64,000 nucleotides of DNA. Source: an uncultured Acidobacteriota bacterium. Lineage in GTDB: Bacteria > Acidobacteriota > Vicinamibacteria > Vicinamibacterales > CAVVIG01. Under the pieces are notes generated by a model. It had not been told where the DNA came from and searched no databases. It was given only the letters and a program-made list of their open reading frames with translations. A program made the position numbers and the translations under genes. Below, in pieces: positions 52,260-58,995 of this stretch (positions within the stretch are counted from its first letter, which is position 1; each line of letters opens with the position of its first letter). The stretch covers positions 329,959 through 393,958 of the forward strand of contig CAVVIG010000001.1 of NCBI GenBank assembly GCA_963748265.1, read 5' to 3'.

Positions 52260-53185
52260 CGCCGCAGTCGCTCCCTTCTGTCGCGCAGCGGCTCGGCCTG
52301 AGCGCCAGCGAAGAGGCCATCGCGCGCAGCGTCCTGTACGCGTCGCTCTTCGACTACCCGCTCACCCTTTCCCAGTTGCGGCAGACGCTGATCGAATCGG
52401 CACAGACGCCTACGCAGATCCTCGCGACGTTCGAGCGGAGCGCTCCGCTGCGAGAGCTCGTCGAACATCGCAACGGCTTCTTCTACCCGGCCGGCCGCCA
52501 GGAGCTCGTGGCCGAACGGCGAAGGCGCGAGGGGCGCAGCCGTGCCTTCCTCAAGGCGCACCGGCGGCTGCTGCGGCTGATCGGGGGACTCCCATACGTG
52601 CGGCTCGTCGCCCTCTCGGGCAGCATTGCGCACCTGAATCTCGAGAAAGGCGGCGATCTCGACCTCTTCATCGTCACACGGGGGGCACACGTCTGGAGCA
52701 CGGCGGTCGCCGTGGTGCTCCTGGCGAAGGGTATGCGCCGCCGCCGGACGCTCTGCGCGAACTTCGTCGTGGCAGACACGGCGCTCGCCTTCGCGCAGCA
52801 GGACCTGTTCACCGCAAGCCAGATCGTCGGCCTGAAGCCGCTGGCCGGCGCCGCGACATTCCAGCAGCTCCTCGATGCGAATCCCTTCGTGCGGCGCTTC
52901 TTTCCGAACTTCCACGCGCCGGCGTGCGGTGCGCTGCCCGCGCTCCAGCCGGCCTCGCCTCCACGACGGAAGCGGGCGGCGGAGTGGCTGCTGATGGTCC
53001 CTGCCTGGGGCGTGGAATGGGTGTGCCGGCACGCCTACGGCAGGTACCTCCGCAGGCGCGCGGGCGGATGGGAATCGCCGGATCAGGTGCGGCTCGAACC
53101 GGGCTGTCTGAAGCTGCACACACGCAGCCACCGCAGCACCGTCCTCAACCGGTTCGACGACCTGGTGCGAGCGGCGCTGAAGTAG
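52256..53185 (+). CDS. Uncharacterised protein with Pol-beta-type nucleotidyltransferase motif
   Basis: YASLFDYPLT N-terminus; VALSGSIAHLNLEKGGDLDLFIV (hGS-x10-DhDh); ATGA overlap with flippase. Confidence 0.75.
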   Translation: MTPQSLPSVAQRLGLSASEEAIARSVLYASLFDYPLTLSQLRQTLIESAQTPTQILATFERSAPLRELVEHRNGFFYPAGRQELVAERRRREGRSRAFLKAHRRLLRLIGGLPYVRLVALSGSIAHLNLEKGGDLDLFIVTRGAHVWSTAVAVVLLAKGMRRRRTLCANFVVADTALAFAQQDLFTASQIVGLKPLAGAATFQQLLDANPFVRRFFPNFHAPACGALPALQPASPPRRKRAAEWLLMVPAWGVEWVCRHAYGRYLRRRAGGWESPDQVRLEPGCLKLHTRSHRSTVLNRFDDLVRAALK

Positions 53186-53207
53186 ACACCGCCCGCTGGC
53201 TCGCGCG

Positions 53208-54512
53208 TCAGGACAGGAGCGCTTCGAGCTCGCGGCGCATCACGTCGATCGCCTCATCCTCGGTCGCCGCCGCCCGGGCCAGCCGCGCGAGGCGCTCCGC
53301 CGCGCCCTCACGGCGCCTCAACGTCGCGGCGCCCTCCGGCAGGATCTCGGCGACCATGCCGGCCGCCGCCGTGAAGTTAGTGGCGGGGTCGATCAGGATG
53401 AAGCTGCCGGTTCCGCGGTTCTCGACGTACGGGTCCAGCATCACCGGACGCGCCGTGGAAATGTTTACCGAACCAATCTGATTGAGCGTCAGCGGACGGT
53501 CCACTTCCGCGGTGACCGACCGCGTCGAGTGCTTGAGCAGGTAGATCCGCGACGGATCGAGCGGCCGCTCGTCCATCCAGACGATGTCGGCGCGGAAACG
53601 CTGGGCGACTGCCACCTCACCGATCGTGATCATGTCGCCGCGGCTGATGTCGATCTCGTCGTCGAGCGTCAGCGTGATCGCCTGGCCGGCGTGAGCGGCG
53701 TCGATCTCGCCGTCGTAGGTGACGATCTGCTTCACGCGCGACGACCGGCCGCTCGGCCAGATGTTGACCGTGTCGCCCCGGTGCACGGACCCCGACAGCA
53801 CCTGTCCGGCATACCCGCGGAACTCGTGCGTGGGCCGAAGCACGAGCTGCACCGGGAACCGGAACGGGCGGTCGATCGCGTCGCGCTGCACTTCTACGGT
53901 CTCGAGGAACTCGAGCAAAGACATCCCCTCGAACCAGGGGGTCCGCTCGCTGCGGCCGATGACGTTGTCGCCGTGCAGCGCGCTGATCGGAATCGGGTGC
54001 AGCTGTGCGCCGGCGAGGATCTGCTCGAAGTCGTCGACGATCGTCTCGAACACCGAGCGATCGAAGTCGACGAGATCCATCTTGTTCACCGCCAGGACGT
54101 AGTGGCGGATGCCGAGCAGTTGTGCGATCTGCGCGTGGCGGCGCGACTGCGGGCGGACGCCGTGCCGGGCGTCCACGAGCAGGATGGCGAGGTCGGCCGT
54201 CGACGCCCCGGTGGCCATGTTGCGCGTGTACTGCTCGTGGCCGGGCGTGTCGGCCAGGATGAACTTGCGGCGCGCCGTCGCGAAGTACCGGTACGCCACG
54301 TCGATCGTGATCCCCTGCTCACGCTCCGCCCGCAGGCCGTCGGTGAACAGCGAGAAGTCGATGGCGCCGGCCGAGCGGTTCTTCGAGGCGCGCTGGATCG
54401 AGTGCAGCTGGTCCTCGTACACGGAGCGCGAGTCGTACAGCAGGCGCCCGATCAGCGTGCTCTTCCCATCGTCCACGCTGCCTGCGGTGCAGATGCGGAG
54501 CAGACCCGACAT
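53208..54512 (-). CDS. cysN: Sulfate adenylyltransferase subunit 1 (GTPase), no fused APS kinase
   Basis: TAGSVDDGKSTLIGRLL, AEREQGITIDVAYRYF, DTPGHEQYTRNMATGAS, NKMD. Confidence 0.96.
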   Translation of the reverse strand: MSGLLRICTAGSVDDGKSTLIGRLLYDSRSVYEDQLHSIQRASKNRSAGAIDFSLFTDGLRAEREQGITIDVAYRYFATARRKFILADTPGHEQYTRNMATGASTADLAILLVDARHGVRPQSRRHAQIAQLLGIRHYVLAVNKMDLVDFDRSVFETIVDDFEQILAGAQLHPIPISALHGDNVIGRSERTPWFEGMSLLEFLETVEVQRDAIDRPFRFPVQLVLRPTHEFRGYAGQVLSGSVHRGDTVNIWPSGRSSRVKQIVTYDGEIDAAHAGQAITLTLDDEIDISRGDMITIGEVAVAQRFRADIVWMDERPLDPSRIYLLKHSTRSVTAEVDRPLTLNQIGSVNISTARPVMLDPYVENRGTGSFILIDPATNFTAAAGMVAEILPEGAATLRRREGAAERLARLARAAATEDEAIDVMRRELEALLS

Positions 54513-55468
54513 CAGAAGTAGCCCTCGCGCTTGCGGTCTTCCATGGCGGCTTCAGACGCTCGGTCGTCGGCCCGGGTCGCGCCGCGCTCGGTGATGCGGC
54601 TCGTCGCAACCTCCTCGACGATCTTCTCCACGGTGTCGGCGTCGGACTGCACGGCCGCGGTGCAGGTCATGTCGCCGACCGTGCGGTAACGCACCACCAT
54701 GCGGAGGGTCTTCTCGTCGGCCTGCGGCGGCGTCACCGGCGTGACGGCCATCAGCATGCCGTCCCTCCGGAACACGTCGCGCTCGTGTGCGTAGTAGATG
54801 GACGGCAGTTCCAGACCTTCGCGCGCGATGTACTGCCAGATGTCCACTTCCGTCCAGTTCGAGAGCGGGAACACCCGGATGTGCTCCCCCTTCCGGTGAC
54901 GGGCGTTGTAGAGCGACCAGAGCTCGGGGCGCTGGTTCTTGGGATCCCACTGGCCGAACTCGTCGCGGAACGAGAACACGCGCTCCTTGGCGCGGGCCTT
55001 TTCCTCATCCCGCCGCGCGCCGCCGAACACCGCGTCGAAGCGATGCTCGCGGATGGCGTGCAGCAGCGGCACCGTCTGAATCTGGTTGCGCGAGGCGCGC
55101 GGACCGGTCGGGTCGACGACGAGCCCCTGCGCGATCGCCTCCTCGACGGAGGCCACGACGAGCCTGGCGCCGAGCTCCGCGACGCGGCGGTCGCGATAGT
55201 CCATCACCTCGGGAAAGTTGTGTCCCGTGTCGACGTGCATCAGGGGGAACGGGATGCGCGACGGGAAGAAAGCCTTCTCCGCGGCACGCAGCATCACGAT
55301 CGAGTCCTTGCCGCCCGAGAACAGCAGCACGGGCCGCTCAAACTCGGCGACCACCTCCCGCATGATGTGGATGCTTTCCGCCTCGAGCGCGGCCAGGTGG
55401 TCGTAGCTCGGGGCCACCTCGGAGTGGCCGGTGCGGGTCAGCGGCGATCGGTTGAGGGCTGCAGCCAT
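54512..55468 (-). CDS. cysD: Sulfate adenylyltransferase subunit 2
   Basis: LEAESIHIMREV, LFSGGKDS, HVDTGHNF, GGARRDEEKARAKER, WDPKNQRPELW, MEDRKREGYF. Confidence 0.96.
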   Translation of the reverse strand: MAAALNRSPLTRTGHSEVAPSYDHLAALEAESIHIMREVVAEFERPVLLFSGGKDSIVMLRAAEKAFFPSRIPFPLMHVDTGHNFPEVMDYRDRRVAELGARLVVASVEEAIAQGLVVDPTGPRASRNQIQTVPLLHAIREHRFDAVFGGARRDEEKARAKERVFSFRDEFGQWDPKNQRPELWSLYNARHRKGEHIRVFPLSNWTEVDIWQYIAREGLELPSIYYAHERDVFRRDGMLMAVTPVTPPQADEKTLRMVVRYRTVGDMTCTAAVQSDADTVEKIVEEVATSRITERGATRADDRASEAAMEDRKREGYF

Positions 55469-55483
55469 GGGCATGTCGGCACC

Positions 55484-55518
55484 AAAAACAAAAGCCCGGG
55501 GTGGGTCCCCGGGCTTTT
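55484..55518 (-). terminator. Intrinsic terminator in the cysD leader (attenuator)
   Basis: Minus strand AAAAGCCCGGGG-accca-CCCCGGGCTTTT-GTTTTT: perfect 12-bp stem plus U tract, about 15 nt upstream of the cysD start. Confidence 0.9.
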
Positions 55519-55544
55519 CGGTCTGTGGCTTCTGAAGCTCGTGT

Positions 55545-55646
55545 TCAGCAGATGTCTCGAAGCATGGCCAGACGACCGTTCGGCGCGGGACCCTGACGGC
55601 CCGTACAACAACACGCGCAGCAACAGACGGCGGCCTTCTGTGACAT
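55545..55646 (-). CDS. Cys-rich leader peptide of cysDN, 33 aa: MSQKAAVCCCACCCTGRQGPAPNGRLAMLRDIC
   Basis: ATG 55646, TGT TGC TGC GCG TGT TGT TGT at 55625-55605, TGA 55547-55545; lies between promoter and terminator. Confidence 0.85.
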   Translation of the reverse strand: MSQKAAVCCCACCCTGRQGPAPNGRLAMLRDIC

Positions 55647-55657
55647 CAACGTATAGA

Positions 55658-55687
55658 TATGTATCAACTTACGGGCGTCGAAGTCAA
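55658..55687 (-). promoter_or_regulatory. Putative sigma70 promoter of the cysDN leader
   Basis: TTGACT (55687-55682), 18 nt, TGn-TACATA (55663-55658) in a locally AT-rich patch; -10 imperfect. Confidence 0.55.
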
Positions 55688-55698
55688 CTGGAGCCGTG

Positions 55699-56689
55699 TC
55701 AGTCGGGCTGGGTGGCCCTCATGCCGACGTACCGGTGGGCCACCTGCTCGTCCGCGTCGATGACGGCAAAGAAGCGATACAGCAGCCAGGCGTCCAGCAC
55801 AATCACCCCCGCCAGCACGAGGTAAGCCTCGTTTCCGGGCACGATGTGCAGGTCGCGCAGCAGCTTGGAGAGGCCGAAGGCGACGACCCAGGCGTCGAAA
55901 CTCATGCAGATACGCCGGAACGTCTCGGGCCGCATCCGCTGGATGATCATGGCGCCAATCGGCACACCAACCGCCACGCTGGGGACGATCCAGGGCACCA
56001 GCGCGAAGCTGGGCGCCGCAAACAGGCCGACATACCAGTAGGCGACCGCCGTCATCGACGACTCCGCCAGCCGCACGACGCCGAGCGCCGCGCGGAACTC
56101 GCGCTTCTCCAGCCCCTGGTTGTTGAGCGCGATCGCCAGCGGCGGACCTGAAATGGTCGTCACCGAGGTACAGGACCCCGACGCCTGCGCCGAACACGAG
56201 GCCGGCGCTCCGCTCGGCCTGGATCGGGCGCCGGAACCCGGCCGCCTGCAGCAGAATCAACGGGAGCAGCACGAGGAACGTGTCGAGCTTCAACCAGTCC
56301 GGGCTCACCCTCGACACCAGCGTCGTCCCCACGAGGACGCCCGGGATCAGCCCGATGATAATCGGAAGGACGCGGCGCCAGACGGAGGGAAGGCTGGCGC
56401 GGTTCACCCAGAGGACGTAGGCGTTCAGCGGCACCTCGATCAGGATGAGCGCCGGGTTGAGCACGCGGTTCGACAGGAACAGCAGTGCGAGCGGCACCGT
56501 GATCGAGGAGAACCCGTAGCCGAGGGCGCCGTTCACCGTCGCGGCGAGCAGCGTGATGCCGCTCAGCCACATCATCTCTGGCGTCACGACCGAGACCTCT
56601 TCGCGTCGCCGGGCAGACGGCCGGGTGCCGTGCCGCCTTCGCCGGGACGCGGCCTGTACGCTGTCAGATTGGGTGCTTTCGGGAATCAT
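55699..56689 (-). CDS. Sulfite exporter TauE/SafE family permease, frameshift near 56165 (alternative start GTG 56587)
   Basis: LLAATVNGALGYGFSSITVP, GVGVLY...TTISGPPLAI, multiple TM helices; SD GGAG 7 nt before ATG 56689. Confidence 0.87.
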
Positions 56690-56691
56690 CA

Positions 56692-56785
56692 CGCTTCTCC
56701 GTCACGGGTGAACGTCGACCAGCCGACTGACTGGCCTGGAGAAGCGGAGCAACCTGGGGGTTGGAACTATCTGAGGGTGCTTCTC
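56692..56785 (-). promoter_or_regulatory. SD-sequestering switch in the tauE leader
   Basis: Anti-SD CGCTTCTCC (56746-56738) is the perfect complement of SD GGAGAAGCG (56700-56692); competing GAGAAGC (56785-56779) overlaps the leader stop codon. Confidence 0.7.
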
Positions 56786-56879
56786 ACCAGCCGATCGTCG
56801 GCCCGATACACGCGCAGCGACACGCCAGCGCGCAACAGGGACAACAACAGCTCAGGTTCGAAGCGATCACTTCCGGCAT
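56784..56879 (-). CDS. Cys-rich leader peptide of tauE, 31 aa: MPEVIASNLSCCCPCCALACRCACIGPTIGW (possibly leaderless from GTG 56870)
   Basis: ATG 56879 or GTG 56870; TGT TGT TGT CCC TGT TGC ... TGT CGC TGC GCG TGT (8 Cys); TGA 56786-56784. Confidence 0.82.
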   Translation of the reverse strand: MPEVIASNLSCCCPCCALACRCACIGPTIGW

Positions 56880-56907
56880 TGTTGGCTAGGACGCGCTGGC
56901 AAGTCAA
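56878..56907 (-). promoter_or_regulatory. Putative sigma70 promoter of the tauE leader
   Basis: TTGACT (56907-56902), 18 nt, AACAAT (56883-56878), 7 nt, GTG; same TTGACTT -35 as the cysD leader promoter. Confidence 0.55.
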
Positions 56908-56909
56908 GC

Positions 56910-56924
56910 TGGCACCCCGCTTGC
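56910..56924 (+). promoter_or_regulatory. Sigma54 (-24/-12) promoter upstream of wzm-wzt
   Basis: TGGCAC-CCCGC-TTGC matches the consensus TGGCAC-N5-TTGC. Confidence 0.6.
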
Positions 56925-56953
56925 GAACTGAGCTTCACGCCAGCGAGGGTGTC

Positions 56954-57811
56954 CTGATTCCAGTCAGCAACCGGCCCGTCACGCGCTTCCAACCCGCGTC
57001 CGCGGGGGCGATCCGCCCGCTGGCGGCGCTCGCCCGCCTCGCCCGGTTCCAGGATCTGCTGCTGACGCTCAGCCTGCATCGCATCAGGGTCCGGTACAAG
57101 CAGTCGCGCCTGGGCATCGCATGGGCGGTGCTGCAACCGCTGGCCATCATGCTCGCTTTTTCACTCGTCTTCGCGCTGCTCGGCGGCGCGCCGAGCAACG
57201 GCGTCCCCTACGCGCTGTTTGCCTACGCGGGGCTGGTGCCGTGGACCGCGTTCGCCTCCGGCCTTTCGAGCGCCACGACGTCGCTCACCGGCCACGCGGC
57301 GCTGCTCACCAAGGTCTCGTTCCCGCGCGAGATTCTGCCGATCACCTACGTGATTGCCGCGATGGTGGACGCCGCCATTGCCTGCCTCCCGCTCGGTCTC
57401 CTGATGGCGTGGTACGGCGTTGACGTCACGCCGATGCTGGGATGGGCGGTCGTCGCGCTGCTGCTCCTCGCCGTCTGGCTCCTCGGCACGGGGCTGCTCC
57501 TGGCCGCCCTGCAGGTGCGCCATCGTGACATCGGTCTCGCGATCCCCGTCGTCCTGCAGGTGTGGATGTTCGCCACGCCGATCGTGTACCCGCTGTCGCT
57601 GGCCCAGGCGCGGTTGTCGGGGCCGCTGTTCTGGCTGTATGTCGCGAACCCGATGGCAGGCGTCGCCGACACGTTCCGGCGCGCGACGGTGCTCGGACAG
57701 TCGCCCGACATCCCGACGCTCCTCGCCGGTGCGGTAACCGCCCTCGCGCTCGTTCCCCTGGCCTACGTCTACTTCAAGTACGCCGAGTTCACCATGGCGG
57801 ACGTGGTATGA
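56954..57811 (+). CDS. wzm: ABC-2 polysaccharide exporter permease (start uncertain)
   Basis: [51 protein letters not shown]. Confidence 0.92.
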
Positions 57812-58995
57812 GCGGGGTCATCGATGTCCGCATCGATCACGTCTGGAAGCAGTACCGGCTCGGCACGCGGCGGAACGCACCGACGTTCTGGGCGCTGAAG
57901 GATCTCGACTTCGCTGTCGCGCGCGGAGAGTCGGTTGGCGTCATCGGGCCGAATGGGGCCGGCAAGAGCACGCTGCTCAAGCTGCTCGCCGGCATCACCA
58001 CGCCGACGCAGGGCGAGATCACGATTGACGGGTCGCTGTCGGCACTGATCGAGGTCGGATCCGGGTTCCATCCGGAGCTCACGGGACGGGAGAACGTCTT
58101 CCTGAGCGGCGCCATCCTCGGCATGCGGCGCCGCGACATCGCGAGCCGGCTCGATGCCATCGTGTCGTTCGCCGGCGTCGAACGCTTCGTCGATACGCCG
58201 GTGAAGTGGTACTCGTCAGGCATGTACGTCCGACTCGGCTTCGCCATCGCCGCACATCTCCAGCCGGACATCCTGCTCGTCGACGAGGTCCTCGCGGTCG
58301 GCGACGCCGAATTCCAGGCGCGGTGCCTCCAGCGCATCGACGATTTGAAGCGCCAGGGCGTGACCACGCTGCTGATCTCGCACGACCTCACCGCGGTCGA
58401 ACAGCTCTGCGACCGGGTCGTGCTCCTGGATCGCGGCGAAGCGATCGCAAACGGGGCGCCAGGCGACGTCGTCGCCCTCTACCATCGCCGCGTCATCGCG
58501 GCGCAGAAACACGAAGCGCCCCCGACCGACCCGGCATCGCTTCACAACCTGCTCAAGCTCACGAACCTCACCTTCCACGCGACGTCCAGCGGGGGAAACG
58601 CACGCTTCACGACCGGCGAGCCGCTCGTCGTCCGCCTGCGCTTCTCAGCGTCCGCTGCGCTTCCGGGCGTGCGTTTCGAGGTCGCGTTCCACTCCCCGGA
58701 CGGGCGGACGCTTCACGCGACGATTGCGACCGAGGCCGCGCCGGTGCGCAGCCCCGGTGGCGTGGCGGAGTTCACGGTGCCCGTTCTGCCGCTCCAGTCG
58801 GGTGCGTACCACGTGGGCGCTGTCGCGCGCGACGGCCGGACCGGTCATGCCATCGACTGGTGGGACGGTGGGAGCACGCTGTACGTCGAACGCGGCTCGG
58901 CAACGGCGCCGGGGCTCGTCTTCGTGCCGCACACGTCTCGAGTCATCGAGGGCGTTCCGGACCGCGATCCGGTGTCAGCGTCGCGAGACCGCTGA
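57808..58995 (+). CDS. wzt: ABC polysaccharide exporter ATPase with C-terminal carbohydrate-binding domain
   Basis: [48 protein letters not shown]; Wzt_C-like tail. Confidence 0.93.

Follow-up and report, generated by a model that had tools for sequence, protein, structure and literature searches.

The locus and its leader

The window, a stretch of 64,000 nucleotides (nt) from an uncultured Acidobacteriota bacterium (GenBank assembly GCA_963748265.1, contig CAVVIG010000001.1, positions 329,959 to 393,958), carries on its minus strand a tauE gene, encoding a permease of the TauE/SafE type, and upstream of it a leader with a short open reading frame (sORF) rich in cysteine (Cys) codons. An earlier note on this DNA had proposed that the leader controls tauE by sequestering a Shine-Dalgarno (SD) sequence; on direct reading of the minus strand the sORF with its eight Cys, the promoter-like site, the anti-SD, the SD and a competitor sequence on the sORF stop codon were each found where that note had placed them. 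The leader is a conserved regulatory element. As the best explanation, which we regard as probable, we favour a ribosome-mediated attenuator that responds to cysteine and acts by hiding an SD. Its features are as follows.

56878..56907, minus: promoter-like site, with -35 hexamer TTGACT (56907-56902), 18-nt spacer and -10 hexamer AACAAT (56883-56878)
56784..56879, minus: sORF MPEVIASNLSCCCPCCALACRCACIGPTIGW with eight Cys, from ATG 56879 to TGA 56786-56784, by direct reading
56784..56870, minus: sORF read from GTG, 28 codons, (M)IASNLSCCCPCCALACRCACIGPTIGW; the in-frame GTG or ATG is conserved and homologous peptides occur in 98 leaders
56832..56849, minus: first Cys cluster, TGT TGT TGT CCC TGT TGC, the proposed and presumed site of ribosome stalling
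56808..56822, minus: second Cys cluster, TGT CGC TGC GCG TGT (CRCAC), the most conserved stretch of the peptide
56779..56802, minus: segment 2, putative 5' arm of the anti-sequestrator, GCCGACGAUCGGCUGGUGAGAAGC, comprising the last sORF codons and the stop
56722..56745, minus: segment 3, GCUUCUCCAGGCCAGUCAGUCGGC, with two alternative partners, segment 2 and the SD, the latter bound by its 5' part
56746-56738, minus: anti-SD CGCTTCTCC (= CGCUUCUCC), its first C lying 1 nt outside the span of segment 3
56692..56700, minus: SD region GGAGAAGCG (segment 4), followed by GTG 56692-56690 and ATG 56689-56687
56719..56829, minus: match of the window copy to covariance model R1 (G000:C1:386677-386787), 102.2 bits, E = 8e-19 for its own genome
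56588..56689, minus: short frame MIPESTQ..., in frame with tauE here and a separate open reading frame (ORF) of 10-53 codons in relatives
55699..56587, minus: tauE (TauE/SafE, TSUP), its GTG 56587 aligning with the ATG of relatives, with orthologues in 26 of 41 related genomes

A family of related leaders

Model R1 (111 positions, 26 pairs) was built from 17 leaders and has 48 matches in 41 of the 118 genomes of the family; across the order, 30 of 151 sampled genomes hold matches and seven of 19 families scored. One genome per prokaryote species was also scanned with a degenerate pattern, and 80 of the 97 stretches obtained were examined. Among these 80 loci, 77 contain matches to the model, 78 in number, and their record titles are nearly all those of Vicinamibacterales, Vicinamibacteria or Acidobacteriota metagenome-assembled genomes. 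One hit, L139, bears the title Luteitalea sp. Three pattern-scan loci without a model match (L107, L121, L133) and one with a weak match (L160) were taken as chance matches. Three records titled Bifidobacterium or Bifidobacteriaceae (L105, L130, L134) carry the leader, have about 65% G+C and match the model; since two of them have bit scores equal to those of G009 and G048, the titles are taken as wrong. With L084, L160 and L092:758-856 (probable false hits) and duplicates of identical core removed, and a weak second match in L067 not entered, the collection comprises 98 distinct leaders. By Pfam, the first gene downstream encodes a TonB-dependent receptor in 37, CysD in 31, TauE in 26 and Porin_O_P in four, which accounts for all 98. 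The earlier note had staked its proposal on conservation of the sORF and the anti-SD; both are conserved, and so is the SD, together with the competitor that overlaps the sORF stop.

Within the 26 orthologous tauE loci, a homologous Cys-rich sORF ending in ..C(R)C(A)C(I)GPT(I)GW lies no more than 450 nt upstream in nine. At most of the other loci of the same genus tauE stands directly behind a TonB-dependent receptor gene, and the same leader was found upstream of that receptor in seven of the eight genomes examined, the eighth being cut by a contig end; elsewhere tauE comes after cysH, after cysWA or after a gene for a porin. The window's own genome contains the leader a second time (G000:C14:194891-195002, minus strand; L029), likewise upstream of a TonB-dependent receptor gene. 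This copy was spotted in a genome-wide screen for Cys-dense frames, whose 406 matches are mostly spurious and come from off-frame GC-rich DNA. A search of 53000-58000 against Rfam with cmscan, accepting E up to 1, gave no match in the leader and one chance-level match elsewhere (sR-tMet, E = 0.69).

In two other genera (G020 and G018; loci L014 and L016) the leader before tauE is of the terminator type, consisting of a poly-Cys sORF and, behind it, a hairpin and U-tract. As predicted from the sequences, tauE is under two kinds of Cys leader in different lineages.

The sORF and its promoter

Within 55400-57200 the TTGACT-18-AACAAT at 56907..56878 is the only promoter-like site (shuffle mean 0.2), and a site of the form TTGACn-N16-19-nAnnnT lies upstream of 52 of the 95 leaders with enough upstream DNA. 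Forty-nine leaders have both such a site and an in-frame start codon. In 43 of them that codon begins 7-14 nt past the -10 hexamer, and only three of the 49 have an SD-like motif between the -10 and the start codon of the sORF. In the window the corresponding codon is GTG 56870-56868, in frame and 7 nt past the -10; ATG 56879 falls within the hexamer itself, and GTG 56870 is therefore the likelier start. Spacing of the start codons and scarcity of SD motifs fit an sORF that would be translated from a leaderless, or nearly leaderless, RNA.

The sORF of the window has consecutive Cys codons, in the pattern CCC.CC plus C.C.C, with tauE and cysDN downstream. Across the family the sORF encodes 3-10 Cys (median 7), and at least five in 85 of the 98 leaders. 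TGT supplies 64.7% of the Cys codons in the leaders (202/312), as against 16.7% (407/2430) in 363 long ORFs of the same genome. The stop codon falls within segment 2 in nearly all copies. A scan of 55400-57200 found no terminator-like site within 56687-56907, as the earlier note had held; the sole such site, 55518..55490, is part of the neighbouring cysDN leader.

A second stop, TAG 56769-56767, lies in another frame 15 nt past the TGA of the sORF (56767-56786, minus strand), and several relatives have the like in the printed alignments; in G007, G008, G036, G130 and G125 the Cys frame is shifted and uses the later stop. With stops in two frames, a ribosome would end on or just past segment 2 whichever frame it reads.

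Two mutually exclusive helices

In place of the small hairpins that had been expected, RNAalifold applied to 16 full leaders returned one long helix of 27 pairs. Its first arm is made up of the last sORF codons (IGPTIGW) and the stop, GCCGACGA.UCGGCUGG.UGAGAAG, and its second of the anti-SD and the stretch that follows, including a conserved UCGGC motif, CUUCUC.CCGGUCAG.UCGNUCGGC. This pairing, helix 2:3, accounts both for the conservation of the IGPTIGW tail at the nucleotide level and for that of the UCGGCUGA motif downstream of the anti-SD. The competitor GAGAAGC (56785-56779) does overlap the stop codon and is conserved, as the earlier note had it, although what competes is not a run of seven nt but a helix of about 25 base pairs (bp).

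Support for helix 2:3 comes from counts of paired cells and of pairs changed on both sides, compared with the same counts after the arms had been slid. Among 50 copies aligned with the model, pairing extends to 89.3% of cells (slid arms, 29.6-50.2%) and both-sided change to 18 of 26 pairs (slid arms, 2-6), values that none of 500 shuffles reached. For the 78 copies from the wider scan the proportion of paired cells is 86.3% (slid arms, 27.7-43.4%), and both-sided change is seen in 13 of 26 pairs (slid arms, 3-7). All of these pair counts come from alignments fitted with the model, so that they lean towards structure. The leader sequences are moreover related, and the shuffle and Wilcoxon figures overstate the support for that reason.

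Segment 3 has a second partner. In the minimum-energy fold of 56880-56670 (-87.3 kcal/mol, z = -2.96, with 2 of 200 shuffles folding as well) the anti-SD CGCUUCUCC is paired with GGAGAAGCG, which bears out the pairing that the earlier note had read from the letters. In an alignment of the 16 leaders that was not fitted to the model, this helix 3:4 has 85.4% of its cells paired, against 46.5-62.5% when slid. For 43 leaders with curated start codons, the strongest duplex that segment 3 can form with the last 20 nt ahead of the start has a mean energy of -15.3 kcal/mol; when anti-SD and SD partners were reassigned at random the value was -13.3 ± 0.43 kcal/mol, and none of 2000 permutations was as low as the leaders' own pairs. 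Where the downstream gene has a GGAG, as in 42 leaders, it is paired with segment 3 in 40-42. Matched variants extend beyond this core: the C14 copy has the anti-SD ACCCUCUCU with the SD GGAGAGGGU, both of which differ from the window copy, and G001 has GUUUCUCCC with GGGAGAAAC. The distance from segment 3 to the start codon varies from about 25 to 135 nt; hence the complementarity of anti-SD and SD is not a by-product of fixed spacing.

The gene downstream of the SD presumed to be hidden

The claim that the leader sequesters the SD of tauE is borne out in part: a conserved SD would be hidden, but in relatives it belongs to a receptor gene or to the probable remnant of one, and the conserved start of tauE itself aligns with GTG 56587. 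In operons that begin with the receptor, GGAGAAGCG leads into ATGATTTC.., with which the signal peptide of the receptor begins. Nineteen leaders of the family have tauE as the first gene: in ten the same SD starts an ORF of 10-53 codons, four run straight or in frame into tauE, and five have no SD-like motif by the criteria used. The short ORF begins MI(S/P).. in the genus of the window and in G007 still resembles a receptor signal peptide; in several cases it ends on or next to the start of tauE, as TAATG in G009, ATGA in G002 and TGATG in G045 and G036. Our reading of these sequences is that the short frame is probably a remnant of a TonB-dependent receptor's signal peptide, the receptor itself having been lost from an operon of leader, receptor and tauE. 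A tauE start at 56587 was one finding on which the earlier note would have given up its claim; the start is there, and regulation may still reach tauE by translational coupling or by in-frame fusion.

Pfam TauE (PF01925) matches the gene in two pieces, covering profile positions 3-139 and 148-229 (E = 2.8e-14 and 8.1e-08). The source genome is 62% complete by marker genes despite comprising only 14 contigs, which suggests frequent indel errors in the assembly, and for this reason an assembly indel within tauE is likely. The genes cysD and cysN follow tauE and have a Cys-rich leader of their own, ..MSQKAAVCCCACCCTGRQ.. (55545-55667, minus strand), behind TTGACT-18-TACATA; it ends in the canonical U-tract terminator at 55518..55490 and is a different type of leader from that of tauE. 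In other lineages of the order cysD is itself preceded by the tauE-type leader (31/98). A role for TauE as an importer would fit its operon partners, a TonB-dependent receptor or an anion porin, as it would the TSUP and CysZ literature.

On the other side of the leader lies a divergent pair of genes on the plus strand for an ABC-2 permease and a Wzt-type ATPase (56960-58995; Pfam ABC2_membrane, ABC_tran and Wzt_C); the leader and this pair have a 260-nt intergenic region in common.

A proposed switch

We propose that transcription would start at or just before GTG 56870 and that the 28-codon sORF would be translated at once. When charged Cys-tRNA is plentiful, the ribosome would reach the stop inside segment 2 (56802-56779) and occupy that segment; segment 3 (56745-56722) would then wait and pair, through the anti-SD, with the SD at 56700-56692, so that the next frame would not be initiated. 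When Cys-tRNA is scarce, the ribosome would stall at the first Cys cluster (56849-56832) and leave segment 2 free; segments 2 and newly transcribed 3 would form the helix of about 25 bp before the SD exists, and the SD, once made, would be unpaired. The SD so freed would, in the ancestral arrangement, be that of the TonB-dependent receptor, with tauE behind it. In the window, where the receptor gene has presumably gone, the SD would start the remnant frame that runs into tauE, and tauE would be reached by fusion, coupling or polarity. Its product would act as an importer, at the inner membrane, of a sulfur source.

Thermodynamic modelling, in which the ribosome was represented as an unpaired block of 33 nt, supports such a switch only modestly. 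The equilibrium probability that the SD is unpaired rises, as a mean over leaders, from 0.31 without a ribosome to 0.37 with one stalled at the first Cys pair, and by more than 0.2 in five of 43 leaders; because these probabilities barely move, the cost of opening the SD was used instead. In the window this cost is 14.8 kcal/mol when no ribosome is present. Stalling at the first cluster brings it down to 10.1, whereas stalling at the last three Cys, those of the second cluster, leaves it practically unchanged at 14.5, and a ribosome placed on the stop gives 14.7. The corresponding means over 32 leaders, chosen as having at least five Cys in the part scanned, are 10.9, 8.0, 10.6 and 11.2 kcal/mol.

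The leader is present in RNA libraries. Four soil metatranscriptome runs, from four studies, each gave one short contig of 167-195 nt that consists of the leader only (56673-56858, 56676-56855, 56685-56852 and 56656-56848). Three of them differ from the window by one or two letters and the fourth by five letters and a gap. None reaches the promoter or the body of tauE, which is not evidence that these are absent from the RNA.

Several results weigh against this account. The SD of the window is paired in every ribosome state that was modelled, with equilibrium probabilities of being unpaired of 0.27 without a ribosome, 0.31 with a stall at the first Cys pair, and 0.22 and 0.23 otherwise, and even with a stalled ribosome the state in which it is hidden is more stable by 7.4 kcal/mol; since the hidden state is favoured even on a stall, the model needs kinetic, co-transcriptional folding. 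A stall lowers the opening cost by at least 3 kcal/mol in only 16 of the 32 leaders, and in seven the cost increases. A search of 50 leaders for a conserved helix joining the first Cys cluster to segment 2 gave none, and only seven invariant pairs, UGUCG..GC/GC..CGACG, were seen; a four-segment version of the kind known from trp is accordingly not claimed. Both-sided change in helix 3:4 is modest, with four pairs in the alignment of 16 against 2-5 when slid, and any GGAG is complementary to CUCC. To these are to be added the lean of the fitted alignments and the relatedness of the leaders, already mentioned. At the window's own locus tauE is frameshifted: compared with the orthologue in G009 it has gained a single base near 56168 and is split into frames at 55664-56692 and 55699-56163; GTG 56587 lies 102 nt downstream of the regulated start and has a GAGG of its own 8 nt upstream, and tauE of G007 has a strong SD of its own. 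The path from the hidden SD to tauE, by fusion, coupling or polarity, is the weakest link at this locus. As to the RNA, the sequences are Logan contigs (word share at most 0.26), from which ends and levels cannot be read and whose limits may reflect assembly or strain variation; their restriction to the leader hints, weakly, that a short leader RNA is abundant, and a mechanism at the level of transcription therefore stays in play.

Alternative explanations

In such a mechanism the leader would still sense Cys and would act mainly on transcription, the OFF-state RNA being cut short by Rho or at helix 3:4 as a U-poor terminator, with hiding of the SD either secondary or the trigger of polarity. 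We consider this unlikely. It would extend to tauE even where the gene has a separate ribosome-binding site, be it the SD behind the remnant ORF in G007 or the GAGG before GTG 56587; Rho has been proposed for terminator-less Cys leaders by Seliverstov et al. (PMC1262725), and UGAUGAUU, which follows the helix, is moderately U-rich. The leader-only contigs end 7-36 nt past helix 3:4 (at 56685, 56676, 56673 and 56656), again a weak hint, but contig ends reflect assembly and strain variation and not RNA ends. The scan gave no terminator-like site in the leader, whereas canonical U-tract terminators are used in the neighbouring cysDN leader and before tauE in L014 and L016; and in every case segment 3 is complementary to the SD itself, a constraint that a pure terminator would not impose.

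That the sORF encodes a functional Cys-rich peptide, for instance a metal- or redox-active one, and is conserved for the peptide's sake and not as a sensor, seems to us highly improbable. The CRCAC..P(T/A) motif is indeed conserved in nearly all 98 copies, and Canestrari et al. allow that such peptides may do something in their own right (10.1101/834739). Against this, the C-terminal codons form the 5' arm of helix 2:3 and change together with their partners while the amino acids change (IGPTIGW, TGPTTVR, MQPTTGS, TVPATGR), the number of Cys varies from 3 to 10, the rare codon TGT is preferred, and the element always lies 5' of sulfur genes and on their strand. We give equally little credence to a riboswitch-like RNA that would bind a sulfur metabolite, as ligand, or a protein, with the reading frame incidental. 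An RNA of that sort might have just such a long, covarying helix, with motifs like UCGGCUGA conserved inside it, and without a match in Rfam it could belong to a new class; yet a start, in-register Cys codons and a stop in a fixed place are kept in all copies bar the probable false hits, and no conserved multi-stem junction or pocket-like core was predicted. The attenuator that hides an SD is retained as the probable explanation, and our confidence is higher still that the leader senses Cys in some way, whichever step it acts upon.

Wider meaning

It is conceivable, if somewhat short of probable, that a single RNA family, with at least 98 distinct copies, links how far tRNA-Cys is charged to a dedicated entry through the outer membrane (TonB-dependent receptor or anion porin), to a TSUP permease and to sulfate activation by CysDN, and does so in seven families of the order searched, which by its record titles is Vicinamibacterales. 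It would then be the first ribosome-sensed 'Cys regulon' outside Actinobacteria, worked by a kinetic three-part switch in which the end of the sORF and its stop serve as anti-sequestrator, and it would point to an unrecognised TonB-dependent uptake of sulfur with TauE as importer. Acidobacteria are abundant in soil, and the attenuators predicted in them are described as almost all lacking an assigned function (PMC2965389); the present leader is a concrete candidate RNA switch for the phylum. If the account is true, cysteine sensing by ribosome stalling extends from Actinobacteria to a diderm lineage. The presumably co-regulated set of receptor or porin, TSUP permease and CysDN hints at a route of sulfur uptake and at the true direction of a homologue of 'sulfite exporters', and covariance model R1 can be used to annotate the element in metagenomes.

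Comparison with known systems

In Actinobacteria, terminator-less leaders encoding peptides rich in Cys have been known as predictions since 2005 (PMC1262725), and polycysteine leaders are reported to control an SD in Mycobacterium smegmatis (10.1101/834739). The likeness to the mycobacterial system that the earlier note had drawn is apt as regards a Cys-rich sORF near the promoter, sulfur genes downstream, the lack of a terminator and an output at the SD; it fails in that the Cys codons are not here paired with the SD. Like Ms5788A and the 'Cys ribulon' as described by Canestrari et al. 2020 (10.1101/834739), the present leader occurs at several loci per genome. In mycobacteria, by the same account, the Cys codons pair with the SD region and a stalled ribosome blocks that duplex, whereas here the partner of the SD is a separate anti-SD about 38-40 nt past the stop, and the 3' end of the sORF competes for it as a third element. 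The present leader belongs to a diderm Acidobacterium of soil, by record titles one of the Vicinamibacterales, and its family has a porin and an outer-membrane receptor among its targets, whereas the mycobacterial hosts are actinobacteria. No kinship in sequence between the two systems was noticed, though none was looked for.

Translational attenuation of ermC and cat, as outlined in the same report (10.1101/834739), also has a leader ORF, pairings 2:3 and 3:4 that exclude each other, and a ribosome whose stalling makes the SD accessible. What is sensed there is an antibiotic, which works together with an arrest peptide; here it would be the supply of charged tRNA-Cys, and among 50 leaders the conserved helix 1:2 was not found. 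With the trp, his and leu attenuators, and with the neighbouring cysDN leader, the present one shares a peptide rich in the regulatory codon, a stop in the region of alternative pairing and mutually exclusive helices; pairings 2:3 and 3:4 of this kind, with the stop in segment 2, are the mark of the classical attenuators, and both are supported here. In those leaders helix 3:4 is an intrinsic terminator with a U-tract, whereas here there is no terminator and helix 3:4 contains the SD.

Outside Actinobacteria, the uORFC-8-2 element before cysS in Rhodobacterales is, like the leader described here, a candidate attenuator with tandem Cys codons (Brewer et al. 2021, PMC8632094). As presented in that report its Cys codons number two and are mostly UGC, its stem is a terminator ending in a run of U, and cysS is its only target, in all of which it is unlike the present leader. 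A TauE/DUF81-type permease tied to sulfur assimilation, as here, is also known in CysZ of Corynebacterium glutamicum, which Marietou et al. 2018 (PMC5840216) describe as linked to the genes of assimilatory sulfate reduction and taken to import sulfate; here the partners of TauE, a putative importer, are a TonB-dependent receptor or an anion porin. A literature search, with most subscription journals outside its reach, returned no report of a cysteine leader in Acidobacteria. With the known systems the present family shares the principle of a leader that would sense Cys; it differs from them in layout, host and set of targets.

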